Sequence record: DRR723986_643
Length of the DNA: 64,000 nt
Reading direction: 5' to 3' (one strand)
Shown here: piece by piece, positions 40,122-64,000 of the stretch
How positions within the stretch are numbered: position 1 is the stretch's first letter
Layout of the letters: each line of letters begins with the position of its first letter
Program-made: the position numbers and the translations under genes
Notes under the pieces: generated by a model
Database searches by the model: none
Seen by the model: only the letters and a program-made list of their open reading frames with translations
What the model was told of the DNA's origin: nothing

Positions 40122-41300
40122 TCAGCTGGTTTTCAGCGATTGCAGGATACGGGCCGTGTGCTCCCCCAGCAGGGGTGGCGGCGTCGAACAACTTACCGGG
40201 GTGCGGGACAGCTTGATCGGGTTGGCCACCAGCTGCAGGTCCGGATTCAGCGGATGCGGTACGTTGATCTGCATACCCCGCGCCTGGATCTGCGGCTCGA
40301 CGAACACCTCGGCGACCGTGTTGATGGGCCCCGCCGGCACTCCCGCCTGCGCCAACAGCAACAGCCACTCATCGCGTTTACGCGTCAGCATTGCAGCCTG
40401 CAGCAGGGGCACCAGCGCATCCCGGTTTTCCACCCGCGCCCGGTTGCTGGCGAAGCGGGTCTCATCCGCCAGTTCGGGTCGCCCGAGCGCGGCGGCGAAG
40501 CGGCGGAACTGGGCGTCATTGCCGACCGCGACGATCAGGTGGCCATCGGCCACAACGAAACTCTGGTAAGGCACGATGTTGGGGTGCGCGTTACCCAGGC
40601 GGGTGGGATTCAAGCCACCAACAAGGTAATTGGTCGCCTGGTTGGCCAGGGTGGCGGCCGTAACATCGAGCAGGGCGAGGTCCACCTGCTGGCCCAGGCC
40701 GGAGCGCTCGCGCTCCGAAAGCGCGGCGAGAATACCGATGGTCGCGTACAGGCCGGTCATGATGTCGGTGAGGGCGACGCCGACTTTTTGCGGTCCGGCA
40801 CCCTCGGCGCCATCCGGTTGCCCGGTCACACTCATCAATCCGCCCATGGCCTGCACCAGGAAATCGTAGCCCGGGCGATGCCTGAGCGGTCCGGTCTGGC
40901 CAAAGCCGGTGATCGAGCAGTAGACCAGGCGCGGGTTGATTTCGGCGAGGCTGGCGTAATCCAGCCCGAAGCCGGCCGCACCACCTACCTTGAAATTCTC
41001 GATCAGCACATCACTGCGCAGGGCGAGCGAACGCAGCGCTTGCTGGCCTTCGGCGGACTTCATATCGATGCACACCGACTGCTTGCCGCGATTGGCGCTC
41101 ATGAAATAAGCCGACTCGGAGGTAGGCTGGCCGTCGGCATCGCGCATGAAGGGTGGGCCCCAGCCGCGGGTCTCATCGCCGACCCCGGGTCGTTCAACCT
41201 TGACTACCTCGGCACCGAGGTCCGCCAGGATCTGGCTGGCCCACGGGCCGGCCAGTACCCGTGACAGGTCGAGTACCTTGAGCTGGGACAGTGCGCCCAT
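40122..41300 (-). CDS. CaiB/BaiF class III CoA-transferase (probable succinyl-CoA:glutarate CoA-transferase)
   Basis: DLSRVLAGPW, ANRGK, ENFK, RPGYD; translationally coupled to gcdH. Confidence 0.88.
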   Translation of the reverse strand: MGALSQLKVLDLSRVLAGPWASQILADLGAEVVKVERPGVGDETRGWGPPFMRDADGQPTSESAYFMSANRGKQSVCIDMKSAEGQQALRSLALRSDVLIENFKVGGAAGFGLDYASLAEINPRLVYCSITGFGQTGPLRHRPGYDFLVQAMGGLMSVTGQPDGAEGAGPQKVGVALTDIMTGLYATIGILAALSERERSGLGQQVDLALLDVTAATLANQATNYLVGGLNPTRLGNAHPNIVPYQSFVVADGHLIVAVGNDAQFRRFAAALGRPELADETRFASNRARVENRDALVPLLQAAMLTRKRDEWLLLLAQAGVPAGPINTVAEVFVEPQIQARGMQINVPHPLNPDLQLVANPIKLSRTPVSCSTPPPLLGEHTARILQSLKTS

Positions 41301-42484
41301 TAGAAGGCCGGTATCTCGGTCTGGGTCCGGCCCAGAATCAGCGCGTGCACGTCGTGGGTGCCCTCGTAGGTATTCACTACCTCCAGGTTCACCATATGGC
41401 GCATCACCGGGTACTCATCCGAGATCCCATTGCCACCCAGCATGTCCCGCGCCGTGCGGGCGATGTCCAGCGCCTTGCCGCAGGAATTGCGTTTTATCAG
41501 CGAGATCAGCTCCGGCGCTATCTGCCCGGCATCCATCAGTTCACCGGCCCGCAGGCAGCCCTGCAGGGCCAGGGCGATTTCAGTCTGCATATCAGCGAGC
41601 TTGAGCTGCACCAGCTGCTTCGATGCCAGCGGCACCCCGAACTGCTTGCGCTCAAGCGTGTACTGGCGCGCCGTGTGCCAGCAGGTCTCGGCAGCACCCA
41701 TAGCGCCCCAGGCAATGCCGTAGCGAGCGTTGTTCAGGCAGCCGAACGGGCCTTTAAGCCCTTCCACGTTGGGCAGCAGCTGCTCCTCACCGACAAACAC
41801 CTCATCCATCACGATTTCACCGGTGATGGAGGCACGCAGGGCGAGCTTGCCCTCGATCTTCGGTGCACTCAGGCCCTCCATGCCCCGCTCCAGGATGAAG
41901 CCGCGTATCTTGCCGTCATCGGTCTTGGCCCAGACCACGAACACGTCGGCAAACGGGCTGTTGCTGATCCACATCTTGGCGCCACTGAGGCGATAACCCC
42001 CGTCGACACTGCGCGCCCGAGTGACCATGCTGCCCGGATCGGAGCCATGATCCGGCTCGGTCAGGCCAAAGCAGCCGATCCATTCCCCGGTGGCGAGTTT
42101 TGGCAGGTATTTCTCGCGCTGGGCTTCGTTGCCATAGGCATAGATCGGGTACATGACGAGCGAGGACTGCACGCTCATCATCGAGCGGTAGCCGGAGTCG
42201 ACCCGCTCCACCTCGCGGGCAATCAGCCCGTAACTGACATAATCGACGCCGGGGCAGCCGTAGCCGTCAATAGTCGAACCGAGCAGACCCAGTTCGCCCA
42301 TCTCCCTGAAAATCGCCGGGTCAGTCTCCTCCCGGCGGTAGGCGTCCCGTACCCGGGGCAGCAGCTTGTCCTGGGCATACTGTCGCGCACTGTCGCGCAC
42401 CATGCGCTGCTCGTCGCTCAACTGCTGTTCCAACAGGAAGGGGTCTTCCCAGTTGAGTTTCTGCCATGTCCTGCCTGCCGCCAT
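41300..42484 (-). CDS. gcdH: Glutaryl-CoA dehydrogenase
   Basis: [57 protein letters not shown]. Confidence 0.93.
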
Positions 42485-42568
42485 CGTGGGTCTCCGGTCT
42501 ATCCAACTTGGCTGGCAAGGCTAGCAGAGCGCTTTCGATCAATAAAATATATGTTTTAAATATTATCC

Positions 42569-42585
42569 ATATACAATAACTATAT
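42569..42585. promoter_or_regulatory. LysR-type binding dyad in the gcdH/LysR divergent promoter
   Basis: ATATA-CAATAAC-TATAT, contains T-N11-A, within an AT-rich intergenic stretch. Confidence 0.55.
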
Positions 42586-42603
42586 TATATGCCGGGCACC
42601 GCA

Positions 42604-43479
42604 ATGGACCTACGAAAACTCGAGATATTTCAACAGGTTGCTGAGCACAACAGCTTCAGCCTAGCGGCCGAGCACCTCCATATGGCGCAGCCGGCGGTCA
42701 GCATTGCTGTCCGCAAGCTGGAGGAGTCACTCGGTGTCACCCTGTTCGACCGCAGCGCACGCCGGGCCCGCCTGACCGCGGAGGGGCGCGCGGTGCTGGC
42801 GAGGGCGCAGCGTATCCTGCGTGAAACCGATGAGCTCCGCCGCAGCACGGACGCCCTGCAGCAACTGCTGACCGGCGAACTGGAACTGGCCTGCCCATCG
42901 ATGCTCGCCACCTATTTCCTCCCCGACCTGCTCGCAGAGTTCCTGCAGGATCACCCGGGCCTGCGAGCCTCGGTTACCCAGGCCGGCACGACGGCCATTG
43001 AAGAGCTGCTGCTCAATGATGCGACAGAGTTGGGCGTAACCAACCGCCAGGCCCGCCGCGCTGATGAACTCGAGCAGGTCGCACTGGTCAGTGAACCCAT
43101 CGTGCTGTGCGTCGCCGCTAATCACCCCTGGGCCGGTCGTGATCACATCCACCCGCGCGAACTGGATGGCGTTGCCATGGCGGTCTACGAAAGTGGCTAT
43201 TACATTCGCAGCGCCCTGGACCAGTTGTGCGCGGACGCCGGAGCCCAGCCCGAGTACCGTTTGCAATCCAACTTCCTGCCCCTGCTGGTGGGCATGGTGA
43301 GGCAGCAGCTGGGCGTGACCGTAGGCCTGGGCATGCTGGCAAGGCAGGAGCCGGGTATCGTCGCCGTAGGTATCGAGGGTGCACCGCAACTCCCATTGGC
43401 CCTGGCCAAACGGCGGGGACGGACGATTTCCCGCGCCAACCAGGCTTTTTTAGATTGGGCCGCTTTCAAGTTATCATGA
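42604..43479 (+). CDS. LysR-family regulator divergent from gcdH (GcdR-like position)
   Basis: MDLRKLEIF...SFSLAAEHLHMAQPAVSIAVRKLEESLGVTLFDR HTH. Confidence 0.93.
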   Translation: MDLRKLEIFQQVAEHNSFSLAAEHLHMAQPAVSIAVRKLEESLGVTLFDRSARRARLTAEGRAVLARAQRILRETDELRRSTDALQQLLTGELELACPSMLATYFLPDLLAEFLQDHPGLRASVTQAGTTAIEELLLNDATELGVTNRQARRADELEQVALVSEPIVLCVAANHPWAGRDHIHPRELDGVAMAVYESGYYIRSALDQLCADAGAQPEYRLQSNFLPLLVGMVRQQLGVTVGLGMLARQEPGIVAVGIEGAPQLPLALAKRRGRTISRANQAFLDWAAFKLS

Positions 43480-43513
43480 GCGACTTTTATTACGGGTCAC
43501 GCCACAAGCCGCG

Positions 43514-44353
43514 ATGTCCAGCCTAAGTGTATTCAGCAAGCAGCTGGCCCAGCTGATCCCCTCGGTCGGTACTGCGCAGTTCCCCGCCGAGCTGATCAAG
43601 ACCCTGGGGCTACTGGTTCCCGTGGAGGACGCCACGATCCTGGTTTACCCCCGGGGCGACCTGCCGGTGCTGGAGTATTTCCGGGTCAATAAGGAAACCG
43701 GCCGGACCACCCTGGATCGCTATCTGCAGGGCGCTTTCCTGCTGGATCCGTTCTACCTCGCTGCCCACCAGGACAAGCGCTTTGGCGTATTCCGGCTGCG
43801 CGACCTGTCGCCGACCGGTTTCCGGGATAGCGAGTATTACCGCAACTGGTACCGTAACTGCGGTTACCAGGATGAATGCGGCTACCTGTTTCCGCTCAAG
43901 GGCGGCGGCTTCGTGAATGTCGCGCTCGGCCGCACCCACCCCCGCGCGAGTTTCACCAAGACCCACTTCAGCCTGCTGGAGGATATCGCGCCGACCATTG
44001 AAACCCTGTGCCGCGCCCAGTGGGCAGAACCCGCCAGCCGCGGTACCGGACCCAACCTGCGCGCCCAGCTGCACAAGGCGCTGGACGCTTTCGGGTCCAG
44101 CCTGCTGACGGAGCGTGAATCCCAGGTGATCAACCTGGTACTGCACGGCCACAGCACCAAGACCGTCGCGGAGAAACTGTCCATCTCGATGGAGACCGTC
44201 AAACTGCATCGCAAGCACGCATACGCGAAGCTGGAGGTCAGTTCCCAGGCGGAGCTTTTCTACCTGTTCCTGGACTCCCTGATGAGCGCCCAGGACTATG
44301 AGGGCGGGGATACGCTGGTGGCCTATATGCAACCGCCCGCGTCGCGGCACTAG
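43514..44353 (+). CDS. LuxR-type HTH regulator with non-REC N-terminal ligand domain
   Basis: C-terminal LTERESQVINLVLHGHSTKTVAEKLSISMETVKLHRKHAYAKL; N-terminal domain with GAFLLDPFY. Confidence 0.88.
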   Translation: MSSLSVFSKQLAQLIPSVGTAQFPAELIKTLGLLVPVEDATILVYPRGDLPVLEYFRVNKETGRTTLDRYLQGAFLLDPFYLAAHQDKRFGVFRLRDLSPTGFRDSEYYRNWYRNCGYQDECGYLFPLKGGGFVNVALGRTHPRASFTKTHFSLLEDIAPTIETLCRAQWAEPASRGTGPNLRAQLHKALDAFGSSLLTERESQVINLVLHGHSTKTVAEKLSISMETVKLHRKHAYAKLEVSSQAELFYLFLDSLMSAQDYEGGDTLVAYMQPPASRH

Positions 44354-44386
44354 CCTGAGCTGCCAGCTGCACCCCGCATGCCAACC

Positions 44387-44401
44387 TACTCCTAAGGGGT
44401 A
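44387..44401. promoter_or_regulatory. NarL/LuxR-type inverted heptamer site
   Basis: TACTCCT-A-AGGGGTA (7-1-7 dyad; half-sites fit TACYYMT) directly after the LuxR gene and upstream of the sulfotransferase. Confidence 0.45.
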
Positions 44402-44563
44402 TAGTTTTCACCGATGCCATTGGTAAGGTTAAACAACACCGTTAACCCGGCACACCGGCGGACAGTCTGCGAAGGCAGGCTGGCGTGTTGACTGCGCGCC
44501 GCGATTGCCTGACGGAACGGAAAGCCGCGTTTGCCAACCCAACAGGACCCTGTCACTGACCGC

Positions 44564-46162
44564 ATGACGAAGGCTTCACCACAAGCTCCCGCGCCGTGGA
44601 TGCACAACGCGCTCAGGGAGGGCTTCGCCCATCTCGCCGCCGGCCGCTTTCGCGAGGCCGGCGAGTGCTGCCGCCGTTTGCTGGAAGCCAGGCCCGACCT
44701 GGTCGAGGCACATTTCCTGGTGGGGCTCATCGCCACCGAGTTGAAGCAGCGCTGGAACGCGGTCAGCGCTTTCGGGTCGGTGACCAAGCTGCAGCCCGAT
44801 CACGGCGCGGCCTGGGCCAACCTGGCCCGACTATTCATGCAGGCCGGGCAACCGGCACGAGCAACGGCCGCGCTGGAAAAAGCCGTGGCGCACCATGATG
44901 GTAATCCGCTGGTGCTCGATCTCATCGGCACGGTTTACGGCCTGCTCGGCGATCAGGTGGAAGCCGGCGAATGGGTTGGCCGCGCCCTGGAAAAGCAGCC
45001 GGACAGCATCCAGTTTCTGGTCAACCAGGCCAACAATCACATGTTCCTCGACCGGATGGACGAGGCTGAAGTCCTGCTCAACCGGGCACTGGAACTACGC
45101 CCCGGCAATCCGAACGCCCACTGGCTGCTCTCCGGCCTGAAAAAGGCGAGCAACCGGGAACATGTCGAGGTGCTCGAACAGCTGGTACAACAGGAGAACC
45201 GCAATCCGCGGGCGCTTGCCTTTCTTTACTACGGTATGGGCAAGGAACTGGAAGACCTCGAGGACTGGGACAAGGCCTTCGATGCCTTTGCCCGCGGCGC
45301 CAGCGCCCGGCGCAGCACCATTGAATTCGACGAGGCTGCCGAGATCGAGATGTTCGAGGCATTCGCCGCCACGTTCACCGAACAGTGGATGGCGCAGGCC
45401 GGCCCCGGACACGACGACCCTTCACCCATTTTTGTGGTGGGGCAGCCGCGCACCGGCACCACCCTGGTGGAGCGGATCATCACCAGCCACTCGCAGGTGC
45501 ATTCCGCGGGCGAGCTGAAGCAGTTCGGCAACTGCGTGCGCAGACTCTGTGATTACCGTGAGCAAAAGCCTTTCTCCGCCCGCCTGCCCGAACTCGCCGC
45601 AGGCATCGACCCGGACAAGCTCGGCAAATCCTATATGCAAACCACGGCCAGGCTGCGGGGCGAGCTGCCACGCTTTGTCGACAAGCTGCCCCCGAATTAC
45701 CTGTATATACCGCTGATCCTGCAGGCACTGCCCGGGGCGAAGATCGTGCACCTGAAGCGCGATCCGATGGACGCCTGCTTCGCCAGCTTCAAGCAGCTAT
45801 TCGCCGATGCCTACCCGCATTCCTATGACCAGCAGGAAATGGCACGCCACCACGCCCGCTACTACCACCTGATGGCGACCTGGCGCGAGCGTTTCGGCGA
45901 TCGCTTCATCGATATTTCCTATGAGGACACCGCCCGGGACCTGGAGCCCAACGCCCGCGCGCTGATCGACTTTCTCGGGCTGCCCTGGGAAGACGCCTGT
46001 CTCGACTTCCACAAGCAAAAGGCCGCAGTCACCACGGCCAGCGTCGTCCAGGTTAGACAGCCCGCGCACACCCGCTCAGTCGGCAGGTGGCGGCGCTACC
46101 AGGATCAGCTGTCGGTGATGCAGCAAACCCTGGAGCAGGAGGGTGTCCCGCTTGCGTACTGA
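44564..46162 (+). CDS. TPR-repeat PAPS-dependent sulfotransferase (TPST-like)
   Basis: N-terminal TPRs; 5'-PSB VGQPRTGTTLVE, FVDKLP, 3'-PB RDPMDACFAS, TASVVQVRQP; start uncertain (TTG 44531 alternative). Confidence 0.9.
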   Translation: MTKASPQAPAPWMHNALREGFAHLAAGRFREAGECCRRLLEARPDLVEAHFLVGLIATELKQRWNAVSAFGSVTKLQPDHGAAWANLARLFMQAGQPARATAALEKAVAHHDGNPLVLDLIGTVYGLLGDQVEAGEWVGRALEKQPDSIQFLVNQANNHMFLDRMDEAEVLLNRALELRPGNPNAHWLLSGLKKASNREHVEVLEQLVQQENRNPRALAFLYYGMGKELEDLEDWDKAFDAFARGASARRSTIEFDEAAEIEMFEAFAATFTEQWMAQAGPGHDDPSPIFVVGQPRTGTTLVERIITSHSQVHSAGELKQFGNCVRRLCDYREQKPFSARLPELAAGIDPDKLGKSYMQTTARLRGELPRFVDKLPPNYLYIPLILQALPGAKIVHLKRDPMDACFASFKQLFADAYPHSYDQQEMARHHARYYHLMATWRERFGDRFIDISYEDTARDLEPNARALIDFLGLPWEDACLDFHKQKAAVTTASVVQVRQPAHTRSVGRWRRYQDQLSVMQQTLEQEGVPLAY

Positions 46163-46189
46163 CGCAGTCAGGATTAACAGAGGCAACGG

Positions 46190-46205
46190 CGGCATACGTC
46201 TTGCA
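46190..46205 (+). promoter_or_regulatory. Candidate sigma54 (-24/-12) promoter for the TonB receptor-spdH unit
   Basis: CGGCATACGTCTTGCA: GG-N10-GC spacing with a TTGCA -12 element. Confidence 0.4.
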
Positions 46206-46319
46206 AGAAAATACGGTGGACCAGCGCTGCGAGCCGATTGCGGCACCGGTGCTTTCACGCTAGTCTCACCATACTAAGGCCGCGATTTGACGGCCAAACA
46301 GCCCAAACCCGGAGGGGAT

Positions 46320-48803
46320 ATGAACGACAACAACTGCCCACAAGCCAGAATATCCGGCCATACCGCATCCATCAGCAAGGCACGCACCACCGCCTCCACG
46401 CGCACAAGATTAGCGCAGGCCGTCTCGGTCGCGCTCCTTACTGGTGCAACGGCCGTACCAAGCTATGCACAGCAGCTCGAGGAAGTGATTGTCACCGCAA
46501 CCAAGCGGGCTGAGTCGGTCATGGATGTACCTATCGCCATTACCGCCATGTCAGGCGAATCGATCCGCGCGATCAACCTCAACGATATCAAGGACCTGAT
46601 TGCCTTCACCCCGGGAATCAGCGGCAACAGTAAGGACAGCTTCCTCGATTTCGTCAGCGTTCGCGGTATCCGCACGATTGATTTCGGCAACGGCGGCGAT
46701 CCGTCCGTCAGCCTGTACAAGAACGGCCTGTACCAGGGGCGTAACGGCTCTGCCGTCTCCAGTCTCTACGACGTTGAACGGGCCGAGGTCCTGCGTGGAC
46801 CGCAGGGCTTCCTGTTCGGCCGCAACTCGGTGAGTGGTGCGATGAACATCATCACCAACAAGCCGAATGTCTCCGAGACCGAAGGCTACGCCGAACTGGA
46901 TGTTGGTGAGCGCAACGTGCTGGTGTTCGAGGGTGGGGTCAATTTCCCGATCACCGATAACCTGGCGGTCCGGGTGGCGGGCTTCCACACGGAAGAAGAC
47001 GGCTATGTCGAGAACAGCTTCGGCGGACCTGACCTGATTAACCATGAAAACCAGGCCCTGCGGATCACCACGCGCTACGAATCGGACCGCATCACCGCTG
47101 ACCTGCTGCTGGAATATGAAGATCGGGACCAGTTCGGCTCTGTCTATCGCGCGACCGGCAAGGGCGAGGCGTTCACTGACGCACAGACCCGGATCAACGG
47201 CGGCGTGCCCATCGAACTCTCCCGGGATGGTCGCACGGTCAACAATGACAATTCCCTGCAGCCCACCGACCAGTCGGAAATTTTCTCCGTCGGCCTGCTG
47301 ATGGATATTGACCTGGGCTTTGCAACCCTGACCTCGCTGACCGGGTACAAGGATCACGACTACCAGTACGTTGAAGACTACGACGCACTGCCGACCATCA
47401 CCTTCAACTACGGACAGGACCAGAGCGGCGACTATTTCGAGCAGGAACTGCGACTCACCTCCAACGGTGATGGGCCGCTGGACTGGTACGCCGGTGCCTC
47501 CTACTACAAGGAAGACATCGACACCGTGTTCCTGGGCCAGCAGGAGGAAGACGTTTACTGCCTCGGCTACTGGTTCAATACCTGCCAGGACATGTTCGAC
47601 TACTACAACTACCTGGATTCCTACTACGGCAATACCTATTACTGCGATTACTACCTCGATTACTACTTCGGCAGCTGTGACTGGACCGCGTCGCCCACCG
47701 GCCTGATTAATGACCGCAACCGGATTAAGGGCAAGTATGAGGGCTACTCCACCTACGTGGACCTGAAGTACGCCTTCACCGAGAGTTTCGATATCGGTGT
47801 GGGTCTGCGTTACACCTATGACGAGAAAGAGTTCTCCCAGGAGGTCCTGGCAGATCCGGGTGGCTCGCTGCTGAACTTCAAGGTACAGACCGGCTTCTCC
47901 ACCCCTGAAGGGGCGCTGGAAGACAAGCAGGACTGGGATGAAATCACCTGGCGAGTGGTGGCCAACTGGCGTCCGGATGATGACTCGCTGATCTTCGGCA
48001 GCATCGCCACCGGCTACAAGCCCGGCGGCTTCGGCAGCTTCAATATCGAAGGCCCCGGCGCTGAGGCGTGTCCCTTTGGATTGTGCGTTGGCGTCCCCGG
48101 CTCGGAACTGCCCGGGGACTTTGGCCCGGAAACGGTGACCTCGTTTGAGGTTGGCTACAAGGGAACCCTGATGGATGGCAGGACCCAGGTCGCAACCACG
48201 GCATTCTACTACCAGTACGAGGACCTGCAGGCGATCTTCGGTGAAGGCCCGCGGACCATTGTCGACAACGTCGGCGAAGTCGATGGTTGGGGCATTGAGG
48301 CCGAGCTGAATACGGCCCTGACCGACAACTTCACCTTGCGCCTCGGCGCGTCGTGGTTCGATTCGGAAGCGAATGACGTGCAGGCGTTCTGCGGTGCCGG
48401 TGAAGTGATTACCGGTTCAGCCGATGCCTGTGAAGGCAACTCGATTCCCTGGGCCCCGGAATACACCGCGTTTGCCGTGCTCAATGCCAACTTCCCGATC
48501 GGCGACAACGGCGGCGAGGCCTTCGGTACGCTGTCCTGGACCTGGGAAGACGACTACCGCGGCGACTGGCCGGATCCGAGCGTGATCTACCAGCGCATCG
48601 AAGCGGTCAACCAGACGGACTTCATTATCGGTTACCGCCAGGAGTCGTGGCACGTCAGCGCCTACGTTGAGAACGTGTTTGATGACGTGTGGTACGACGG
48701 CGCCTACTCCGATGACCCGACCCCGGGTACCATCTTCGTCCAGCACACCTTCGGCCCGGCCCGTCCGCGGACGGCCGGGGTTAGACTCGGCTACGAGTTC
48801 TGA
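46320..48803 (+). CDS. TonB-dependent receptor with Tyr/Asp/Cys-rich insert
   Basis: Signal peptide, TonB box LEEVIVTATKR, plug EVLRGPQGFLFGRN, C-terminal RTAGVRLGYEF; ATG 46320 follows GGAGGGG. Confidence 0.95.
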   Translation: MNDNNCPQARISGHTASISKARTTASTRTRLAQAVSVALLTGATAVPSYAQQLEEVIVTATKRAESVMDVPIAITAMSGESIRAINLNDIKDLIAFTPGISGNSKDSFLDFVSVRGIRTIDFGNGGDPSVSLYKNGLYQGRNGSAVSSLYDVERAEVLRGPQGFLFGRNSVSGAMNIITNKPNVSETEGYAELDVGERNVLVFEGGVNFPITDNLAVRVAGFHTEEDGYVENSFGGPDLINHENQALRITTRYESDRITADLLLEYEDRDQFGSVYRATGKGEAFTDAQTRINGGVPIELSRDGRTVNNDNSLQPTDQSEIFSVGLLMDIDLGFATLTSLTGYKDHDYQYVEDYDALPTITFNYGQDQSGDYFEQELRLTSNGDGPLDWYAGASYYKEDIDTVFLGQQEEDVYCLGYWFNTCQDMFDYYNYLDSYYGNTYYCDYYLDYYFGSCDWTASPTGLINDRNRIKGKYEGYSTYVDLKYAFTESFDIGVGLRYTYDEKEFSQEVLADPGGSLLNFKVQTGFSTPEGALEDKQDWDEITWRVVANWRPDDDSLIFGSIATGYKPGGFGSFNIEGPGAEACPFGLCVGVPGSELPGDFGPETVTSFEVGYKGTLMDGRTQVATTAFYYQYEDLQAIFGEGPRTIVDNVGEVDGWGIEAELNTALTDNFTLRLGASWFDSEANDVQAFCGAGEVITGSADACEGNSIPWAPEYTAFAVLNANFPIGDNGGEAFGTLSWTWEDDYRGDWPDPSVIYQRIEAVNQTDFIIGYRQESWHVSAYVENVFDDVWYDGAYSDDPTPGTIFVQHTFGPARPRTAGVRLGYEF

Positions 48804-48811
48804 TGACCACT

Positions 48812-48868: not shown

Positions 48869-48876
48869 GGTGACAC

Positions 48877-50801: not shown

Positions 50802-51245
50802 ATGAACAAAATCATCAGCACAGTATGCGCACTGGTACTGGCAGGCAACGCACTGGCGGCAGACCAGGCAACCGTCGTGCCAGTGAAGATCACCCCCGAT
50901 GATATGGCAGGGGCAATCTTCGAGCGCGAGGACATGACCGAAACCACGCACGAGGACGGCCACGTCACCCTGGATGTGACCAGCCTGCTGTCCAGCGACA
51001 AGAAGTTCGCCTCAGGCATGTACAAGTCTGGGAAAACGCGCGCCGAAATCAACGAACCCTATGGCGTTGACGAGTTCATGTACTTCCTTTCCGGCAGCGT
51101 TACCCTGACCTCCAGCGACGGCACGGTGCAGACAATCAATGCGGGTGAAGCGGTCACCATTCCCAGGGAGTGGACCGGCATCTGGGATACCGACGGCTAC
51201 ACCAAGATCTGGGTGATTTACTCGGCAGACGGCTCAGGGCTCTAA
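50802..51245 (+). CDS. Exported cupin (DUF861/EutQ-like)
   Basis: Signal peptide (NALA); DEFMYFLSGSVTL...AGEAVTIPREWTGIW. Confidence 0.8.
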   Translation: MNKIISTVCALVLAGNALAADQATVVPVKITPDDMAGAIFEREDMTETTHEDGHVTLDVTSLLSSDKKFASGMYKSGKTRAEINEPYGVDEFMYFLSGSVTLTSSDGTVQTINAGEAVTIPREWTGIWDTDGYTKIWVIYSADGSGL

Positions 51246-51264
51246 ACAGCGTCACCTGCCAGCC

Positions 51265-54598: not shown

Positions 54599-54634
54599 GC
54601 TCGTAGCCTCCTGCGCCGGCGGCAGCCGGACTCG

Positions 54635-56215: not shown

Positions 56216-56241
56216 TTCCTATCCCCGCCTGTGCTGCATTG

Positions 56242-57462: not shown

Positions 57463-59071
57463 AGCAATCATCCTCCGGCACGGTGTTGGGCCGCTTCAGG
57501 TCGAGCAGGATTTCCCGGGCCGCATTCGCACCGCAGGCAGAGGAAACGCCACCGCCGGGGTGGGTCGACGAACCGCACATATACAGGTTCTTGACCGGCA
57601 TACGGTACTGCCCGTAACCCGGGAAGGGGCGGTTGAACAGCAACTGGTCGATGGTCAGTTCGCCCTGGAAGATGTTGCCTTCGGTGAGCCCGATCTCGTT
57701 TTCAATCTCGTGCGGCGTGCGCACCTCCATGTGGACGATAAGGTCCTTGAAGCCAGGGCTGTGACGCTCGATCTTGTCGATCACTGTCTGCCCGAACTGG
57801 TCCCGCTTCTCCGGCGTCCACGGACCATCCGCCAGCTCCGGCGGACAGTACTGGATAAAGTTGGACATCCAGTGCTTGCCGACCGGCGCCACCGTGGGAT
57901 CCCAGGCCGAGGGAATGATCGACTCGATGAACGGATCCTCCGACCAGCGCCCGCGTTTCCAGCAGTCGTAGGCACGCTCCATGGTCTCCAGGGAGCCGAC
58001 GAAGGTCTGTCCGCCACGGTTGATATAGCGGTTGTCCGGCAGACTGCTGAATGTCGGCAGGCCCGAGAGCGCAATATTGACCTTGCCGGAAGAGCCGCGG
58101 ATCTTGAAATTGCTGGCCCGCTCATAAATGCCGGGGGGCACATCCGCCTTGTCCATGACCCGGGTGAAGGTGCGCCGCGCGTCGAGGTTGGATACCACGA
58201 TCCGGGCCTGGATCTCATCGCCGTTCTCCAACGCCACCCCGACCGCCTGGCCGTTCCTCACCAGAATCTGCCGCACTCCCGACCCGGTACGTAGCTCGCC
58301 GCCCGCGGCCTGCAGAGCGCCGGCGAGCGCCTTGGAGATCGCGCCCATGCCACCCCGGGCCAGACCCCAGGCGCCGACATTGCCGTCGACATCGCCCATC
58401 ACGTGGTGCAACAGGATGTAGGCGGAGCCGGGCGAGTACACCCCCAGGGCGGTGCCGATAATGCCCGGACTGGCCATGGCCGCCTTGATCAGGTCGTTCT
58501 CGAAATAATCATCGAGGAAGTCGGCGGCGCTCATGGTGAAAAAGCGCACGTACTCGTAGAGTTCGCGTTCGCCCAGGGACCAGAACTCACGGGCGAGAAA
58601 CAGCAGTTCACGAATATCCCGCGGCCTGAAAGAGCTGGGGTCCGGCGGGGTACGCAACAGGGTCTTGCGAATCAGCTGCGCGTAACGACCGAGGTCGGCC
58701 TGAAAGCGGGCCATGGCATCCGCGTCATGCGGCGAGTGGCGCTTCAGTTCGAGGTAGCTGGCGGCCTCGGTCGGATAGTCGATCAGGGTCTTGCCATCGT
58801 GGCCGAAGGCCACTGTTCCAAGATAGGGGACCAGCAACAGACCATGCCTGGCCAGGTCGAGATCGCGGTGAATGGCCTGGCGCATCATGCTGCACACGTA
58901 GGAGCAGCTGGAATAAAACCAGCCTTCCTGCAGCTCGCGGGTCACCGCCGCACCACCGATATAGTCGTTCTTCTCCACCACCAGGACGTCGAGACCCGCC
59001 CTGGCCAGGTAGGCAGCATTGGTCAGGCCATTGTGGCCTGCACCGACGACAATGGCGTCATAGCGCTTCAC
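57452..59071 (-). CDS. PYROXD2/phytoene-dehydrogenase-like FAD oxidoreductase (paralog 3)
   Basis: GTG 59071 in a GTGA overlap; GAGHNGL, GGMG, GNIFQGEL, LYMCGSSTHPGGGV. Confidence 0.88.
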   Translation of the reverse strand: MKRYDAIVVGAGHNGLTNAAYLARAGLDVLVVEKNDYIGGAAVTRELQEGWFYSSCSYVCSMMRQAIHRDLDLARHGLLLVPYLGTVAFGHDGKTLIDYPTEAASYLELKRHSPHDADAMARFQADLGRYAQLIRKTLLRTPPDPSSFRPRDIRELLFLAREFWSLGERELYEYVRFFTMSAADFLDDYFENDLIKAAMASPGIIGTALGVYSPGSAYILLHHVMGDVDGNVGAWGLARGGMGAISKALAGALQAAGGELRTGSGVRQILVRNGQAVGVALENGDEIQARIVVSNLDARRTFTRVMDKADVPPGIYERASNFKIRGSSGKVNIALSGLPTFSSLPDNRYINRGGQTFVGSLETMERAYDCWKRGRWSEDPFIESIIPSAWDPTVAPVGKHWMSNFIQYCPPELADGPWTPEKRDQFGQTVIDKIERHSPGFKDLIVHMEVRTPHEIENEIGLTEGNIFQGELTIDQLLFNRPFPGYGQYRMPVKNLYMCGSSTHPGGGVSSACGANAAREILLDLKRPNTVPEDDCYDE

Positions 59072-60609
59072 TTGAGGATCTCCCGCGCGGCATTGTGCCC
59101 GGGGCCTCCCATCAGGCCACCACCGGGGTGGCAACCCGCGCCACAAAGATACAGACCAGGAATCGGCGTGCTGTACTGCGCCGCTTCGTAGGTGGGGCGC
59201 ATCATCAGCAGCTGGTCGACGGCAAACTCCGTGTGATGCCAGTGACCACCGGTCACATGGTGCGTCGCCTCCAGGTCAGCGGGCGTCAGCAGCTCGGCCT
59301 GCAGCACCAGGTCGCCCAGGCCAGGCGAATACTCTTCCAGGGTGGCCATGACCCGCTCGGTCAGCCGGGCGCGGGCCTCCTCGGTCCAGCCGCCCTTCAA
59401 CCGGGCCGGTACATACATGATGTGGGCAGACAGCACATGCTGTCCCGGTGGCGCCAGTGACGGGTCGTGCAGGCTGGGAATCAGCAGCTCCAGCACCGGG
59501 TTCTCGGAGCACTGCCCGTACTTGGCGTCGTCAAAGGCAAACTCTATGGCATCGGGCTCGGGTGCAATGATCATCCGGCCGTCGGCTCGCTCCAGTCCGG
59601 GAAAGCGGGGCAGGTCCCGCAGGGCCAGGTGCAGCTTGGCCACATAACCTTCGCAGCGCAGGCGCTGGATGCGGTTGGTAAATTCGATTTCCAGGTGACG
59701 CGCGCCTACCAGTTGCAGGAAGGTCCGCTGCGGGTCGGCGGAAGACACCACCCGCTGCGCCTGAATCCGCTCGCCGTCAGCCAGCTCAACCCCGGTCGCC
59801 CGCAAACCCTGCTCGTCGCCAGCAACAAGGATTCGCGACACGGGGGTAGAAAAACGCAGCTCCGCACCGGCCGCGGTCGCCGCGGCCTGCAGGGCACCGA
59901 CCAGGCCCTCGATGCCGCCGGCGGGCACGCTGTGCAGGCCGCGATGTTCTCCCAGCATCCGGTACAACAGCGCGAACACCGGGCTGTTGGGCGAGCGCGG
60001 CGCCAGCTTCGACCCGATGAGCCCGTCCCAGCTGAGCGCAGCCTGCAGACGCTTGTTATCGAAGTTTTCATCCATGAGGTCGCGCATCGGCAAGGTGGCT
60101 ACCCGCAGGAATTCAAGCATGTCCGCCTTGCCCAGCATCCGCAGCCTCAGACCCAGCTTGCCGAAAGTAAGCAGTTCGCCGGCGCTGTTATTGCCAATGC
60201 GCGGCATGGTCCTGGTCCAGAAGGGCTGCAGGGCGCGAGCAAACTTTTTCAGCGACTCGCGATAGCGCGGGTATGTAGCTGCGTCCTCATCGCCAACCCC
60301 GGTAACCCGGGAGTCCTCAATCACGATGTGCTCACCGGCGGGGTCGAGGGCCACAGTGGCCAGCGCCGGCCCTGGCTGGTAACCGTGGGCGGCCAGCTTC
60401 AATTCAGCTGCGACCTGCGGTGAGAACTGGTTGACGCTGTGGGCGACCGACGCCCGAAAGCCGGGATGGAATTCCCGGGTCGACGCCAGGCCACCGGCCA
60501 TGGCTGCGGCCTCCAGCACCAGCACCCGCTGTCCCTGTCCGGCAAGGTAGGCGGCACAGATGAGCCCGTTGTGGCCGGCGCCGATAACAATCGTGTCGTA
60601 GCTGTTCAT
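59068..60609 (-). CDS. PYROXD2/phytoene-dehydrogenase-like FAD oxidoreductase (paralog 4, divergent)
   Basis: GAGHNGL, EFHPGF, FDDAKYG, GGHWHHTE, LYLCGAGCHPGGG; ATG 60609. Confidence 0.88.
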   Translation of the reverse strand: MNSYDTIVIGAGHNGLICAAYLAGQGQRVLVLEAAAMAGGLASTREFHPGFRASVAHSVNQFSPQVAAELKLAAHGYQPGPALATVALDPAGEHIVIEDSRVTGVGDEDAATYPRYRESLKKFARALQPFWTRTMPRIGNNSAGELLTFGKLGLRLRMLGKADMLEFLRVATLPMRDLMDENFDNKRLQAALSWDGLIGSKLAPRSPNSPVFALLYRMLGEHRGLHSVPAGGIEGLVGALQAAATAAGAELRFSTPVSRILVAGDEQGLRATGVELADGERIQAQRVVSSADPQRTFLQLVGARHLEIEFTNRIQRLRCEGYVAKLHLALRDLPRFPGLERADGRMIIAPEPDAIEFAFDDAKYGQCSENPVLELLIPSLHDPSLAPPGQHVLSAHIMYVPARLKGGWTEEARARLTERVMATLEEYSPGLGDLVLQAELLTPADLEATHHVTGGHWHHTEFAVDQLLMMRPTYEAAQYSTPIPGLYLCGAGCHPGGGLMGGPGHNAAREILK

Positions 60610-60702
60610 TGAGGGGCGCACCGGCCTGACCTTGATACCGCACAGGCTAACGGCGCCCGCCTCCGGGAACAAGCGCCGCCGAGGGACGGACTATTTTCCC
60701 GC

Positions 60703-62745
60703 TCAGGCAACGGCCGCCACGTCGACTGTACAGTCGTAGTAACAGGCGCCACCGGCGAGATCGGCCTTGTGTCCGGGGATCAGTGCGTTGATGGTCTGCC
60801 CGGTCGGGCTCTCGGCGATCCACGCTCCCTTGGGAACGAACAGGGTGCCGGTCCTGACCCGGTCAGATATCTGCAGTGGCAGATGCACTTCTCCCAGATC
60901 GTTGAACAAGCTCACCTGCACGCCCTGCTCCAGCCCGAGGGAGTCGGCGTCCGCAGGATGCATTTCACAGACCAGGTCCTTGTCGTGTCGCGCTACGCCA
61001 CCCAGGGTCGAGTTGATGCGCCGCTCGGAGGCGGGGCTGACCACGACAAAACGGCGTGCGGACCGGAGCTCGCGAAACCCCGGCAGACCCTGGCCGCACT
61101 CGGCCTCAAGCGCCGCGCTGTACAGCTCGATCCTGCCGCTGGGCGTGGCCGGCGGCAGGCCGCGAAGCAGCCCAGGCGGCGAAACTGCCGACATATCCAG
61201 TGCGCTGTCCGTCGGCAGCTCACTGGGACGCAGGCCACCGAGAGCCGGTGCATCCGGCTCAATGGCCTGGTCCATCAGCGCTGCATCGGAGTCACGAAAG
61301 CAGGCTTCCTCAAAACCAAACCGAGCCGCCAGCCTGCGGAACAGTTCGGTATTGGGCAAGGCCTCACCTACCGGCGCCAGCACGGGGGCGGATCGCTGCA
61401 GGTAATGATGGCCGTAGGCTTTGTACAGATCACCGTATTCCAGGTGACTTGCCGCCGGCAGGATGACGTCGGCACAGGCCATGGAATCCGTCATGCTGAG
61501 ATCCGATCCGACCACGAACAGCGACTCATCCAACAGCGCGGCGCGCATCCCGCGCTGGCGTGGGTGTACCGCAACCGGGTTGTGGTTATAGATGAAGACG
61601 GCTTTCACCGGGATCGCGTCACCCGGGTCCCCGATATGGTCCGGCAGATCGAGGACATTGAACTCGCGCAGTCCCGGCGGAGCCAGGTCAGGGCGACTGA
61701 GGGCTTCCGAGGCCACCGGGAAATACCCGGAGACATCGCAGACCCCGGCGCCGGGCTCGCCAAAATTCCCGGTGAGCGCCGGCAGCGCGAACAAGGCGCG
61801 CAGGCCAGAGCCACCATTGCGATTGCGTTCCGGTGCGACACCCACGGAAATCGCCGCGGGGCTGAGTTCCCGCCAGTAGCGCGCGAACTGGTAGATATCC
61901 TCCACCGCCAGCCCACAGAGTGCGGCCGCTCGCTCCGGCGGGTACTGCGCTGCCCGGTCGAGGAATTCGCGCGCGCCCAGCACATGCTCTGCGATGAAGC
62001 TGTCGTCCAACCCGCCCTCCTGCTCCAGCAGGGCCGCCACCGAATACGCCAGCACCACGTCGGTGCCCGGCATGACCGGCAGGTGCAGGTCAGCAGTTTC
62101 GGCAATGCGGGTGCGCTTGGGGTCGACCACCACCAGGCGGGCACCCCGCTTGCGGGCATCGCGCAGCAGGGTAGTCAGGTGCAGGTTGCAGGCGGTGATA
62201 TTGTTACCCCAGACCACAATCAATCGCGAATGCGCGAGCTCGGCATAAGAGATGCCACCAACCTCACCGAACACGCTGTCCCAGGCCGCGCTCGATGCCC
62301 CGGTGCACAGGGGCGTGGAGTCCACCTTGCTGGCACCGAGACGGTTGAAGAAGCGCTGGTCCATGGACCCGCCCGCCAGCAGCCCCATCGGACCGCCATA
62401 GGTCAGAGGCGCGATCGCCTCGCTGCCATATTCCCCAATGATCTGCTGAAAGCGCTCGTACACAGTATCCAGGGCCTGCTCCCAGGATACCGGGCGAAAA
62501 GCCATCGCGCCCTTGGGCCCGTCGCGCAGCAACGGGGTCAGCAGTCGCTGGGGGCCGTGGACCAGTTCCGGCAGGCCCTCGGCCACCTTGGCGCAGATCT
62601 TGCCGCGGGTGAAGGGGTTCGCATGACTGCCGCGGACGCGGTCTACCTTGCCATCGACGACATCGATCGACAGGCTGCAGGTGTCCGCACAATCGAGGGG
62701 ACACACGCTGGGCAGGCTGGTGGCGACGGGCTCGGCGGATGACAT
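60703..62745 (-). CDS. Cytoplasmic molybdopterin (bis-MGD) oxidoreductase with N-terminal [4Fe-4S] cluster
   Basis: CPLDCADTC...GKICAK, VWGNN, VDP, PGTD, ADVILPAA, INST, EMHPADA; no signal peptide. Confidence 0.88.
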   Translation of the reverse strand: MSSAEPVATSLPSVCPLDCADTCSLSIDVVDGKVDRVRGSHANPFTRGKICAKVAEGLPELVHGPQRLLTPLLRDGPKGAMAFRPVSWEQALDTVYERFQQIIGEYGSEAIAPLTYGGPMGLLAGGSMDQRFFNRLGASKVDSTPLCTGASSAAWDSVFGEVGGISYAELAHSRLIVVWGNNITACNLHLTTLLRDARKRGARLVVVDPKRTRIAETADLHLPVMPGTDVVLAYSVAALLEQEGGLDDSFIAEHVLGAREFLDRAAQYPPERAAALCGLAVEDIYQFARYWRELSPAAISVGVAPERNRNGGSGLRALFALPALTGNFGEPGAGVCDVSGYFPVASEALSRPDLAPPGLREFNVLDLPDHIGDPGDAIPVKAVFIYNHNPVAVHPRQRGMRAALLDESLFVVGSDLSMTDSMACADVILPAASHLEYGDLYKAYGHHYLQRSAPVLAPVGEALPNTELFRRLAARFGFEEACFRDSDAALMDQAIEPDAPALGGLRPSELPTDSALDMSAVSPPGLLRGLPPATPSGRIELYSAALEAECGQGLPGFRELRSARRFVVVSPASERRINSTLGGVARHDKDLVCEMHPADADSLGLEQGVQVSLFNDLGEVHLPLQISDRVRTGTLFVPKGAWIAESPTGQTINALIPGHKADLAGGACYYDCTVDVAAVA

Positions 62746-62794
62746 GGCACGGACTCCCTGTTGTCGAGCTTACTACTATAGCCCAGGACGGGGT

Positions 62795-63718
62795 TCAGCC
62801 GCTGGCGCGCATGTGCAGAAACTGCAGCGCCAACGACGCCCCGGCAAGCGCGGTGATATCCGCATGATCGTAAGCGGGGGACACCTCAACCACATCGAAG
62901 CCAACAATATTGAGGTGCGACAAGCCCTCGAGGATGCGCAGGGCCCGCGAGGTGGACAAACCGCCTACCACCGGCGTGCCGGTGCCGGGCGCAAAGGCCG
63001 GATCCAGGCAATCGATATCAAAGGTCAGGTAAGCCGGGCGTTCGCCGACCCGGCTGCAAATGGCCTCCACTATCGCTGCCACCGAGGATTCATTGGCCTG
63101 ATGGGCGTCGATAACCTGGAAGGCGTGGTTGGCACGGTCGTAGTCCGTGCGAATGCCAATCTGGATCGAGTGCGCCGGATCGATAAGCCCCTCCCTCGGC
63201 GCCCGGTGGAACATGCAGCCGTGGCTGTACTTTTCTTCCTCATCGTAGGTGTCGGTGTGCGCATCGAAGTGAATCAGCGCCAGCTCGCCATGAGTCTGTG
63301 CAGTGCCGCGCAGCAGCGGCAGGGTAACGAAGTGATCGCCCCCCAGCGCCACCAGGGTCTTGCCCGCCCCGGTGATCCGGGCTGCGTGGGCCTCAACCCG
63401 GGCGAGCATGTCCTCTGAATCGCCAAACAGGAACTGCACATCGCCATAGTCCGCCACCCGCAGCCTGTCGGCGAGGGCGAAATCCCAGGGCCAGCGCTTG
63501 TCTTCCCAACGCAGGTTAGCGCTGGCCTGGCGTATACCGGTGGGACCGCTGCGGGTGCCCGCGCGCCCGCTGGTGCCCAGGTCATAGGGTACGCCCATCA
63601 CGAAGGCGTCCAGCTCCGGATCATCGACATCGCGACTCAGGGGCAGGCCCATAAAACCAAAGACGTTGGCATACATCGAGTATTCGCTGCCCGGAAAATC
63701 GCTCTCGGAATCCCTCAC
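62795..63718 (-). CDS. speB: Agmatinase (ureohydrolase family)
   Basis: GVPYD, GPTGIRQAS, GGDHFVT, HFDAHTD, SHG, FDIDCLDPAFAPGTGTP, DVVEVSP. Confidence 0.88.
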   Translation of the reverse strand: MRDSESDFPGSEYSMYANVFGFMGLPLSRDVDDPELDAFVMGVPYDLGTSGRAGTRSGPTGIRQASANLRWEDKRWPWDFALADRLRVADYGDVQFLFGDSEDMLARVEAHAARITGAGKTLVALGGDHFVTLPLLRGTAQTHGELALIHFDAHTDTYDEEEKYSHGCMFHRAPREGLIDPAHSIQIGIRTDYDRANHAFQVIDAHQANESSVAAIVEAICSRVGERPAYLTFDIDCLDPAFAPGTGTPVVGGLSTSRALRILEGLSHLNIVGFDVVEVSPAYDHADITALAGASLALQFLHMRASG

Positions 63719-63754
63719 CTCTTACTCCCTGCTTATCAGTCACACCCTGCCCGG

Positions 63755-64000
63755 CTAAAGGCAGGCGTCGTATTCCAACGGCGTTACCTGGCGATCAAAT
63801 TCGTCCATTTCCTGCTGCTTGAGCAGCACGAAAACCCGCTGGAACTCTTCGCCAAAACGTTCCCGGATGAAGTCAGAGGATTCGAACCGGGCCAGGGCAT
63901 CCGGCCAGTACCGCGGCAGACTGGCGGGCACTTGCTCATAGGCATTGCCTTCAAGCGGTTCGGGGGCCTCCAGCTTGCGTTCTATCCCCTCGAGGATGCC
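63755..64000 (-). CDS. C-terminal part of a glutamine-synthetase-family gamma-glutamylpolyamine synthetase (PuuA/PauA-like); not in the ORF track, truncated by the window
   Basis: My translation: GILEGIERKLEAPEPLEGNAYEQVPASLPRYWPDALARFESSDFIRERFGEEFQRVFVLLKQQEMDEFDRQVTPLEYDACL-stop(TAG 63757-55); lies upstream of agmatinase. Confidence 0.8.
   Translation of the reverse strand, partial: GILEGIERKLEAPEPLEGNAYEQVPASLPRYWPDALARFESSDFIRERFGEEFQRVFVLLKQQEMDEFDRQVTPLEYDACL

Follow-up and report, generated by a model that had tools for sequence, protein, structure and literature searches.

The 64,000-nucleotide stretch of DNA from sequence record DRR723986_643, hereafter the window, ends in a densely packed region (positions 40122–64000) that carries an outer-membrane receptor, a predicted periplasmic polyamine dehydrogenase, several flavoproteins and a folate-binding protein. 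The stretch is contained in DNA data sets from marine plankton and marine metagenomes, and the names of its close homologues (Halioglobus, Haliea, Congregibacter) point to a Halieaceae-type marine gammaproteobacterium as the probable host. The conserved core of the region is a trio of genes encoding two flavoproteins, FP4 and FP3, and a stand-alone GcvT-like protein. Our reading of the whole, held with evenly balanced confidence, is that a polyamine-type amine would be taken up and cleaved in the periplasm and then subjected to folate-linked N-demethylation in the cytoplasm by the flavoprotein/GcvT unit. Genes were called from a listing of open reading frames (ORFs) together with Pfam and NCBIfam searches, and comprise the following:

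40122–41300, minus strand: family III CoA-transferase, glutarate/succinate CoA-transferase-like (PF02515, 440 bits)
41300–42484, minus strand: glutaryl-CoA dehydrogenase (three ACAD domains; PDB 3GNC/3EOM/3D6B)
42589–43479, plus strand: LysR-family regulator, divergent from the glutarate genes (PF00126, PF03466)
43514–44353, plus strand: LuxR/GerE-type regulator (PF00196 at residues 197–249; N-terminal domain without assignment)
44531–46162, plus strand: protein with TPR repeats and a sulfotransferase domain (PF13469, 162.5 bits)
46287–48803, plus strand: TonB-dependent outer-membrane receptor (plug and beta-barrel domains)
48877–50742, plus strand: Tat-exported SpdH-family polyamine dehydrogenase with flavin adenine dinucleotide (FAD) and haem (PDB 7D9F-J match; twin-arginine motif SRRDFV)
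50802–51245, plus strand: exported Cupin_3 protein (PF05899; signal-like N-terminus MNKIISTVCALVLAGNALA)
51265–52860, plus strand: FP1, accessory flavoprotein of the CrtI/amine-oxidase fold (PF01593, PF01266, PF13450)
52868–54547 as listed (GTG start), probably to 54598 (ATC start), minus strand: sodium:solute symporter (SSS; PF00474)
54635–56215, minus strand: FP2, accessory flavoprotein of the CrtI/amine-oxidase fold (PF01593, 84 bits)
56242–57471, minus strand: stand-alone GcvT-like folate-binding protein of 409 residues, trio member (PF01571 and PF08669)
57452–59071, minus strand: FP3-class flavoprotein of 539 residues, trio member (PF01593)
59068–60609, minus strand: FP4-class flavoprotein of about 513 residues, trio member (PF01593)
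60703–62745, minus strand: cytoplasmic molybdenum (Mo) enzyme of the bis-molybdopterin guanine dinucleotide (bis-MGD) type, with an N-terminal 4Fe-4S motif and a Cys ligand (PF00384, PF01568, PF04879)
62795–63718, minus strand: predicted agmatinase of the SpeB type (NF002564, 422 bits versus a cut-off of 302; TIGR01230, 273.1 versus 174.3)
63755–64000, minus strand: glutamine synthetase (GS)-family ligase, of which the last 81 codons form an open frame cut by the window end

Reading inward from the window end, eight tightly spaced genes occupy the minus strand, from the end of the GS-family gene through those for the agmatinase, Mo oxidoreductase, FP4, FP3, GcvT-like protein and FP2 to the SSS symporter. 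They are convergent with a plus-strand series that runs from the LuxR regulator through the TPR-sulfotransferase, receptor, SpdH-like and cupin genes to FP1, and further left a LysR gene diverges from the genes for glutaryl-CoA dehydrogenase and the family III CoA-transferase. The region is a mosaic of modules: a glutarate module (LysR, glutaryl-CoA dehydrogenase and CoA-transferase); a receptor module (LuxR, TPR-sulfotransferase, TonB receptor, Tat-exported SpdH homologue and exported cupin); FP1 together with the SSS symporter and FP2; and a block holding the GS-like, agmatinase, Mo enzyme, FP4, FP3 and GcvT-like genes. All gene classes named in the initial annotation of this DNA, which was made from the letters alone, are recovered at 40122–64000 by Pfam and NCBIfam; its list overlooked a single gene, that for the TPR-sulfotransferase at 44531–46162 (+). 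Its description of the region as an amine- or polyamine-catabolic island is borne out by gene content, conservation and linkage.

The four flavoproteins are paralogues that share 32–43% mutual identity, FP1 and FP2 being 43% identical to each other. In a FastTree phylogeny of 140 ORFs, restricted to those longer than 450 residues, the 56 FP4-class and the 72 FP3-class sequences each form a monophyletic group with a support of 1.0, and FP1 and FP2 fall into a small third group (12 sequences, support 0.63). The initial annotation had counted four PYROXD2-like flavoproteins as one set; four are indeed present, but they are not equivalent, as FP3 and FP4 represent an ancient pair associated with GcvT and FP1 and FP2 are accessories. 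Conservation of FP3 is high, with a mean column identity of 88% in an alignment of 16 sequences. The stop codon of FP4 and the start codon of FP3 overlap by 4 nucleotides in the window, and the same overlap, with the canonical FP3 length of 539–540 residues, is found in 13 of 15 loci, the GcvT-like gene following a few bases on.

The trio extends far beyond the immediate relatives of the window. Species genomes were scanned with an alignment of GcvT-like homologues, which yielded 600 matched stretches, of which 592 encode a relative, and in this one scan the trio is widespread among marine, sediment and soil bacteria. Of these, the 80 best loci were retained (labelled L below, as G denotes the 121 genomes of the host family), and the window proteins were mapped onto them. 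They divide into two types: type 1 (n = 42) has the order FP4, FP3, GcvT, with FP3 about 80% identical across several bacterial orders, and type 2 (n = 38) carries a paralogous trio in the order FP3′, FP4′, GcvT′. Flavoprotein genes lie upstream of GcvT in 38 of 42 type-1 and 34 of 38 type-2 loci; of the eight loci that lack them, seven (L005, L024, L031, L042, L053, L058, L059) have the GcvT start within about 750 nucleotides of the locus edge. Each trio contains one FP3-class and one FP4-class gene, in reversed order between the two types, and this constant representation of both ancient classes is an argument for two flavoproteins acting as a unit with the folate protein. Rhizobium sp. SL42 and Parasedimentitalea marina also carry the type-2 layout, on plasmids whose annotation of the trio genes goes no further than “NAD(P)/FAD-dependent oxidoreductase” and “aminomethyltransferase family protein”. 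In four genomes of the host family, up to three trio paralogues stand side by side, with three FP3-like genes within 20–32 kb (G121:C4, G088:C17, G079:C172, G024:C3) that are about 83–86%, 62–69% and 60–63% identical to the FP3 of the window.

The third member of the trio matches PF01571 over nearly the whole model (195.9 bits, positions 11–254 of 255), and the homologues listed are 62–87% identical to it. Its closest solved relative is the folate domain of the trimethylamine N-oxide (TMAO) demethylase Tdm (9Q5A, 166 bits, about 35% identity), and it also matches the folate domains of dimethylglycine and sarcosine dehydrogenases/oxidases (1PJ5, 4P9S, 1VRQ and 2GAG, 77–92 bits), and its score against the Tdm family model NF053776 is 247 bits versus a cut-off of 1100. 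According to a report on Tdm, the folate domain of that enzyme receives formaldehyde through a tunnel and forms methylene-tetrahydrofolate (PMC13619132). A true glycine cleavage T protein was considered and set aside: the scores fall below the family cut-offs (TIGR00528, 149.8 versus 235.85; NF001567, 202.9 versus 300), and no gene for an H or P protein is present in the island.

The neighbours of the type-1 trio are rich in amine and one-carbon functions. Most frequent are an AraC regulator with a SnoaL-like N-terminus (31/42), a DAO-type oxidoreductase (23/42) and a membrane protein without a Pfam match (22/42), followed by a MOSC protein (11/42), a GS-like ligase (10/42), an SSS symporter (10/42), an SpdH-like gene (9/42, including loci of other families), a TPR-sulfotransferase (8/42), the glutathione-dependent formaldehyde-activating enzyme GFA (8/42), an Asp/Asn-hydroxylase-like protein (7/42), the bis-MGD Mo enzyme (5/42), PurU (3/42), FolD (2/42) and agmatinase (1/42). 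The type-2 trio has a different company, consisting of aminotransferases (22/38), a PotA-type ATPase (20/38; 399 versus a cut-off of 355.6), a PuuC-like aldehyde dehydrogenase (19/38), a GbcA-like Rieske oxygenase (19/38), a carnitine 3-dehydrogenase (9/38; 583 versus a cut-off of 592) and BKACE (3/38). The theme common to both is amine catabolism with release of a one-carbon unit. Demethylation, which had been proposed for this region from the outset, fits these surroundings, given that formaldehyde and one-carbon folate genes (GFA, PurU and FolD) stand beside the type-1 trio and the paralogous trio resides inside carnitine/betaine clusters. In the isolate HTCC2080 (L018, 16166–19033), the trio cluster extends into an AMP-binding ligase and a malonyl-CoA decarboxylase, which could handle three-carbon units such as malonate semialdehyde derived from beta-alanine.

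The receptor module provides the second pillar of the island. Its SpdH homologue aligns with the solved enzyme (PDB 7D9F-J) over practically its full length, residues 5–617 of 621 against 3–618 of 620 (E 1.6e-147, 496 bits), and carries the Tat signal, the FAD motif and both haem histidines. The surface haem b of Pseudomonas aeruginosa SpdH is ligated by His54 and His562, according to a published description (PMC12564564). By hand count in the alignment, His63 and His559 of the window protein, in the contexts FEVAH and NRWPHGY, align with these ligands. The full-length alignment and the two histidines uphold the assignment as a true member of the SpdH family, the type enzyme of which oxidatively cleaves spermidine or spermine. 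SpdH-like genes form an expanded paralogous family: 62 of the 121 genomes have them, a single genome having as many as 5, and their identity to the window protein falls into tiers of about 75%, 52%, 44% and 38–41% (37–78% overall).

Around the dehydrogenase, the partners recur. The receptor has orthologues of 78–81% identity beside SpdH in relatives, and among 16 genomes examined, 10 have a receptor with its TPR-sulfotransferase next to an SpdH-like gene, which supports the pairing of receptor and dehydrogenase that the initial annotation had noticed. The TPR-sulfotransferase gene, whose product has no signal peptide that we could see, lies 5′ of the receptor in G001–G004, G041, G043, G028, G025, G062 and G121, and is part of the receptor module in relatives. 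The LuxR gene adjoins it in G002, G043, G028 and G121, and the cupin gene follows SpdH in G002, G003, G043, G028, G025, G065 and G121. Paralogous pairs of TPR-sulfotransferase and TonB receptor also stand beside the trio in other lineages (L006, L014, L027, L034, L035), often with an Asp/Asn-hydroxylase-like gene and a gene of 314 codons without a Pfam match, and L006 has two such sets. A literature search on the pairing of TonB receptors with TPR-sulfotransferases found no paper.

Among the other members of the island, FP1, FP2 and the Mo enzyme are accessories particular to certain lineages. FP2 orthologues in relatives are 74–88% identical, and the pair of FP2 and the SSS symporter recurs in L003, L009, G028, G041, G057 and G104. 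The first membrane helix of the symporter, IDLYTATIIVSVALFVF, is encoded ahead of the GTG listed as the start (54547); no ATG, GTG or TTG codon is present between this helix and the in-frame FP2 stop, and an ATC at 54598 is located 8 nucleotides after a GGAGG. Taken together, these features make a non-canonical start at 54598 likely.

The Mo enzyme gene is found immediately upstream of FP4 in nine cases (L001, L002, L003, L009, L032, G041, G043, G028, G065). Formate dehydrogenases are marked by a Cys or selenocysteine metal ligand followed by His. Cys147 of the window enzyme aligns with the selenocysteine at position 140 of FdhH, and the next residue is Thr where FdhH and FdhF have His; this substitution, with a TIGR01591 score of 234.4 versus 666.25, led us to reject a formate dehydrogenase. 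A MOSC gene encoding about 200 residues is found in 11 of the 42 type-1 loci (L005, L012, L016, L021, L024, L029, L040 and others), directly after GcvT in 7 of them. It never shares a type-1 locus with the bis-MGD enzyme, which among these loci is present in L001, L002, L003, L009 and L032, and this mutual exclusion suggests that two unrelated molybdoenzymes may fill one accessory step.

At the window end, the GS fragment is 75% identical to the end of a GS-like gene of 462 codons in G002, which is followed there by an SpuC-like aminotransferase (693.7 bits versus a cut-off of 510) and an APC transporter. The ligase had initially been called PuuA-like. Its membership in the GS family stands, but the window holds only a C-terminal fragment and the full-length orthologue of G002 scores below the PuuA cut-off (203.2 versus 650), as it does below that for type III GS (220.1 versus 469.6). 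Few genomes link the agmatinase/GS pair to the trio; apart from the single type-1 locus with an agmatinase near the trio, this proximity is seen solely in G002 and G043.

How far the island constitutes one unit can be judged from the related genomes. G043 carries in a single stretch the GS, agmatinase, Mo enzyme, FP4, FP3, GcvT, FP2, FP1, cupin, SpdH, receptor, TPR-sulfotransferase, LuxR, LysR, glutaryl-CoA dehydrogenase and CoA-transferase genes, as well as the genes that lie upstream in the window, and most of the island is carried by G028, G041, G065, G001 and G002. Four of these relatives (G043, G028, G041, G065) have about 5.5 kb between GcvT and FP2 that encode a membrane protein, an AraC/SnoaL regulator, a second GS-like protein and a DAO-type protein, to which relatives often add a gene of 239 codons. 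No match to any of these five genes was found anywhere in the window, where GcvT is directly followed by FP2, and this compact junction is spanned by run contigs in three runs of one study, from which the window itself may derive. Linkage was counted by hand in the 121 genomes. An orthologue at least 80% identical to FP3 is present in 38 of them, and in 15 of the 38 (G001, G065, G041, G043, G028, G004, G089, G062, G084, G024, G087, G101, G104, G057, G025) the same contig also bears an SpdH-like gene no more than 25 kb away; a sixteenth is probably G002, in which the linkage would span contig ends. About one linked case would be expected by chance, because a genome of about 4 Mb has about two SpdH-like copies. 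The linked SpdH copies belong to different identity tiers (39–78%) and stand in differing gene orders. With the same genes together in relatives and run contigs extending across the FP2/GcvT junction, the gene arrangement is more than chance. The initial annotation had made its proposal depend on the sub-blocks being linked in related genomes; the association of SpdH with FP3 bears this out in part, although the modules are apart in some relatives.

Set side by side, these modules suggest a route. A polyamine-type amine would cross the outer membrane through the TonB receptor and be cut at a C–N bond by the periplasmic SpdH-like dehydrogenase, and the fragments would enter the cytoplasm, possibly through the SSS symporter. 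There, FP4 and FP3 may oxidize N-alkyl groups, most likely N-methyl, and the GcvT-like protein would capture the one-carbon unit on tetrahydrofolate. The logic would be that of the dimethylglycine and sarcosine dehydrogenases and of TMAO demethylase, executed with a different, split flavoprotein part. The agmatinase and GS-like ligase would handle primary-amine and guanidino products; product processing in relatives may also draw on a DAO-type oxidase, an aminotransferase and another GS-like gene.

Comparison with known systems indicates where this arrangement is familiar and where it departs. As in dimethylglycine dehydrogenase/oxidase, sarcosine dehydrogenase and heterotetrameric sarcosine oxidase, the proposal couples flavoprotein oxidation of an N-methyl group to one-carbon capture by a GcvT fold. 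Unlike those enzymes, the window flavoproteins have the CrtI/amine-oxidase fold (PF01593) rather than a DAO-type fold, number two, from two ancient classes, and are encoded separately from the folate protein; delta and gamma subunits are absent. The likeness to Tdm resides in the folate domain, the nearest solved and NCBIfam relative of the GcvT-like protein. The DUF1989 domain of Tdm has no counterpart in the window, the GcvT-like protein having only GCV_T and GCV_T_C domains by Pfam, and the catalytic partner, unlike that of Tdm, would be a flavoprotein pair. The absence of a DAO-type domain, of a fusion and of DUF1989 places the trio outside both the dimethylglycine/sarcosine and the Tdm families.

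For the polyamine side, the parallels are P. aeruginosa SpdH with the Pau/Spu pathways and the Puu pathway of Escherichia coli, in view of the full-length SpdH homologue, agmatinase and GS-family ligase in the window and the SpuC-like aminotransferase and DAO-type oxidase in relatives. Unlike Pseudomonas SpdH, the window homologue has as its partners a TonB receptor, an exported cupin and a TPR-sulfotransferase; unlike in Puu, the GS-like genes score below the PuuA cut-off and PuuB, PuuC and PuuD are not in the window. What is new in the window is the linkage, in Halieaceae, of the trio to the receptor/TPR-sulfotransferase/SpdH/cupin module, the Mo enzyme and the FP1 and FP2-SSS accessories. 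Literature searches, which did not extend to supplements, agree with the earlier statement that no pathway with this gene set has been described: those on spermidine dehydrogenase with TonB returned matches concerning carboxynorspermidine dehydrogenase, and those on PYROXD2 in bacteria, as a demethylase or in connection with N-methyl groups, on aminomethyltransferases alongside phytoene desaturases and polyamines, and on polyamine use by Halieaceae, gave no paper with this gene set. The homarine operon was considered as a precedent and rejected, the accessible text of its report containing no aminomethyltransferase, tetrahydrofolate or molybd- term (PMC13236597).

The label “PYROXD2-like” calls for a separate comment, as its only basis is an automatic cluster name. 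Atlas cluster names of FP3 look-alikes include [quoted passage not shown] and are otherwise generic, and a eukaryotic (plant) homologue, P0249, is 34% identical across 98% of FP3. The likeness to human PYROXD2, an orphan flavoprotein, is drawn from cluster names and this homologue. We know of no folate partner for PYROXD2. Among characterized models, the best NCBIfam match of the flavoproteins is CrtO (231–276 bits versus a cut-off of 1000), with crtI_fam at 94–125 versus 238.1, and the best PDB match is CrtI (4DGK); the best-scoring matches to the DAO model are limited to the N-terminal dinucleotide-binding region. Carotenoid enzymes of the CrtI/CrtO kind were rejected on account of these scores and of the lack of carotenoid synthesis genes nearby.

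Several observations weigh against the proposed uptake-to-demethylation route. With regard to the enzyme unit, the characterized close families of the flavoproteins are all carotenoid desaturases or ketolases, with no amine oxidases among them, and the stand-alone GcvT-family enzymes DmdA and LigM act without a flavoprotein, so that the GcvT-like protein could act alone. Two apparent flavoprotein–GcvT fusions among 284 longer homologues (P0125, P0127) contain Arg-rich out-of-frame stretches with the look of frameshift artefacts. The flavoprotein–flavoprotein fusions P0246 and P0247 were rejected likewise, which leaves P0245 (1037 residues, from a metagenome), joining an FP3-class and an FP4-class protein with no out-of-frame linker, as the sole clean case of three; it is a singleton from a contig of 4.3 kb and represents either a genuine but rare fusion or an error of assembly. 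With regard to the island as a unit, the window lacks the usual companions of the trio, namely the AraC regulator, membrane protein, DAO and second GS-like gene, the SpdH module and the trio are on separate contigs in G121, G088, G003 and G022, and the agmatinase orthologue of G001 is on another contig. In the wider set, outside the host family, TonB receptors are near the trio in 7 of 25 full-length type-1 loci, about twice the level expected by chance from the 38 receptor matches counted in one 5.5-Mb genome. The compared genomes are related, so their shared gene order is partly inherited. Finally, no RNA run was found to contain the stretch.

The most serious competitor, which we consider possible but distinctly less probable, is that the modules are independent neighbours, adjacent by descent and with no common substrate: the receptor and SpdH would serve ordinary polyamines (spermidine, spermine, norspermidine), the trio small methylated amines, the agmatinase and GS-like ligase agmatine and putrescine, and the glutarate genes lysine or cadaverine carbon. 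The split of the SpdH module and trio between contigs in four genomes speaks for such independence, as do the adjacency of glutarate genes and receptor module in no more than 4 of 10 relatives, the scarcity of agmatinase near the trio and the multi-copy nature of SpdH-like genes. This explanation has difficulty with the 15 of 38 genomes in which SpdH lies close to FP3, which involve several arrangements and paralogue tiers where about one case is expected by chance, and with the SpdH-like genes in type-1 loci of other families.

The initial annotation had itself gone further than the route favoured here, proposing that N-methylated long-chain diatom polyamines or methyl-lysines are handled by TonB import, SpdH cleavage, symport, folate demethylation and glutamylation/oxidation, with carbon leaving via glutaryl-CoA. 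We regard this as improbable. A receptor together with a periplasmic polyamine dehydrogenase would suit a substrate too large or scarce for porins, demethylation-type genes are linked to SpdH-like genes, and the marine origin of the data sets is in keeping with it. Yet no examined feature singles out long-chain polyamines or methyl-lysines among methylated amines, the glutarate link is as inconsistent as noted above, the trio-linked SpdH-like genes of L012 and L021 are accompanied by Pot-type ABC transporters and no receptor, and a literature search on bacterial long-chain polyamine catabolism found no paper. An equally doubtful composite would have a Halieaceae-type receptor and SpdH import and cut large N-methylated polyamines, such as the long-chain ones of diatoms, with the FP4-class and FP3-class PYROXD2-like flavoproteins and the stand-alone GcvT-fold protein forming a hitherto undescribed three-protein demethylase onto folate and an accessory molybdoenzyme, bis-MGD or MOSC, treating an N-oxygenated intermediate.

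A rival of slightly lower standing, and hence unlikely, denies that the trio is a flavin-plus-folate demethylase and supposes instead that the GcvT-like protein transfers methyl or aminomethyl groups directly, in the manner of DmdA/LigM, with the flavoproteins performing unrelated redox chemistry such as carbon-chain desaturation or oxidation. The desaturases and ketolases among the characterized flavoprotein relatives would accord with this, as would the example of DmdA, a stand-alone enzyme of the same family whose model the GcvT-like protein matches at 132 bits against a cut-off of 410. It is opposed by the lack of carotenoid or lipid genes nearby, by the obligate pairing of FP3-class, FP4-class and GcvT-like genes with overlapping stop and start codons, which argues for one functional unit, by the closest domain relative being the formaldehyde-capturing domain of TMAO demethylase, and by the GFA neighbours, which point to free formaldehyde. 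Piracy of polyamine-based siderophores, with the dehydrogenase cleaving the backbone to free iron, is very improbable: the only named similarities of the receptor are indeed to siderophore receptors (TIGR01783, 137 bits, below the cut-off of 223.5), but the matches to solved ones (FyuA, FpvA, FhuA) are confined to the generic plug domain, no genes for FecR/FecI, a periplasmic binding protein or a reductase are found in the island by Pfam, and the neighbours are nitrogen and carbon catabolic genes.

Methylated amines are a major nitrogen and one-carbon currency in the sea. If the trio is a folate-linked amine demethylase, it would represent a new enzyme architecture in methylated-amine turnover and would offer a testable reaction, flavin-dependent N-demethylation, for the orphan human PYROXD2. 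The fact that one abundant coastal family joins it to a receptor in the outer membrane and a polyamine dehydrogenase in the periplasm points towards a larger substrate of the polyamine type and a defined, testable route from uptake to demethylation. Cultured carriers of the trio exist in the isolates NOR5-3 (L003) and HTCC2080 (L018).

The glutarate module at the left edge of the island is well defined in itself. The glutaryl-CoA dehydrogenase matches 3GNC/3EOM/3D6B at 661.7 bits over its full length (residues 10–394) and the human enzyme 1SIQ at 574 bits. In pseudomonads, the glutarate module consists of gcdR-gcdH plus a glutarate CoA-transferase. The window follows the same plan, with a LysR gene running divergently from those for glutaryl-CoA dehydrogenase and a CoA-transferase of family III, and differs in that this CoA-transferase scores 506.5 bits against the succinate-glutarate CoA-transferase model NF052585, below its cut-off of 750, and in its inconstant linkage to amine genes. 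LysR is kept beside the glutarate genes in G002, G043, G028 and G121. The module had been counted as part of the island; its genes are present as claimed, but with the receptor module as neighbour in so few relatives, it may be only a neighbour by descent.

A scan for promoters and terminators gave nothing exceeding shuffled controls (2 versus 4.3 and 15 versus 12). To the left of 40122, the window carries unrelated genes, among them thiolases, an acyl-CoA ligase, an RPE65-type oxygenase and a penicillin amidase. Two ORFs of 567 and 573 codons (5820–7523 and 8946–10667) are without a Pfam match at 1e-10, and both lie in a stretch with an unusually high AT skew (0.23–0.27 over 6001–12000).

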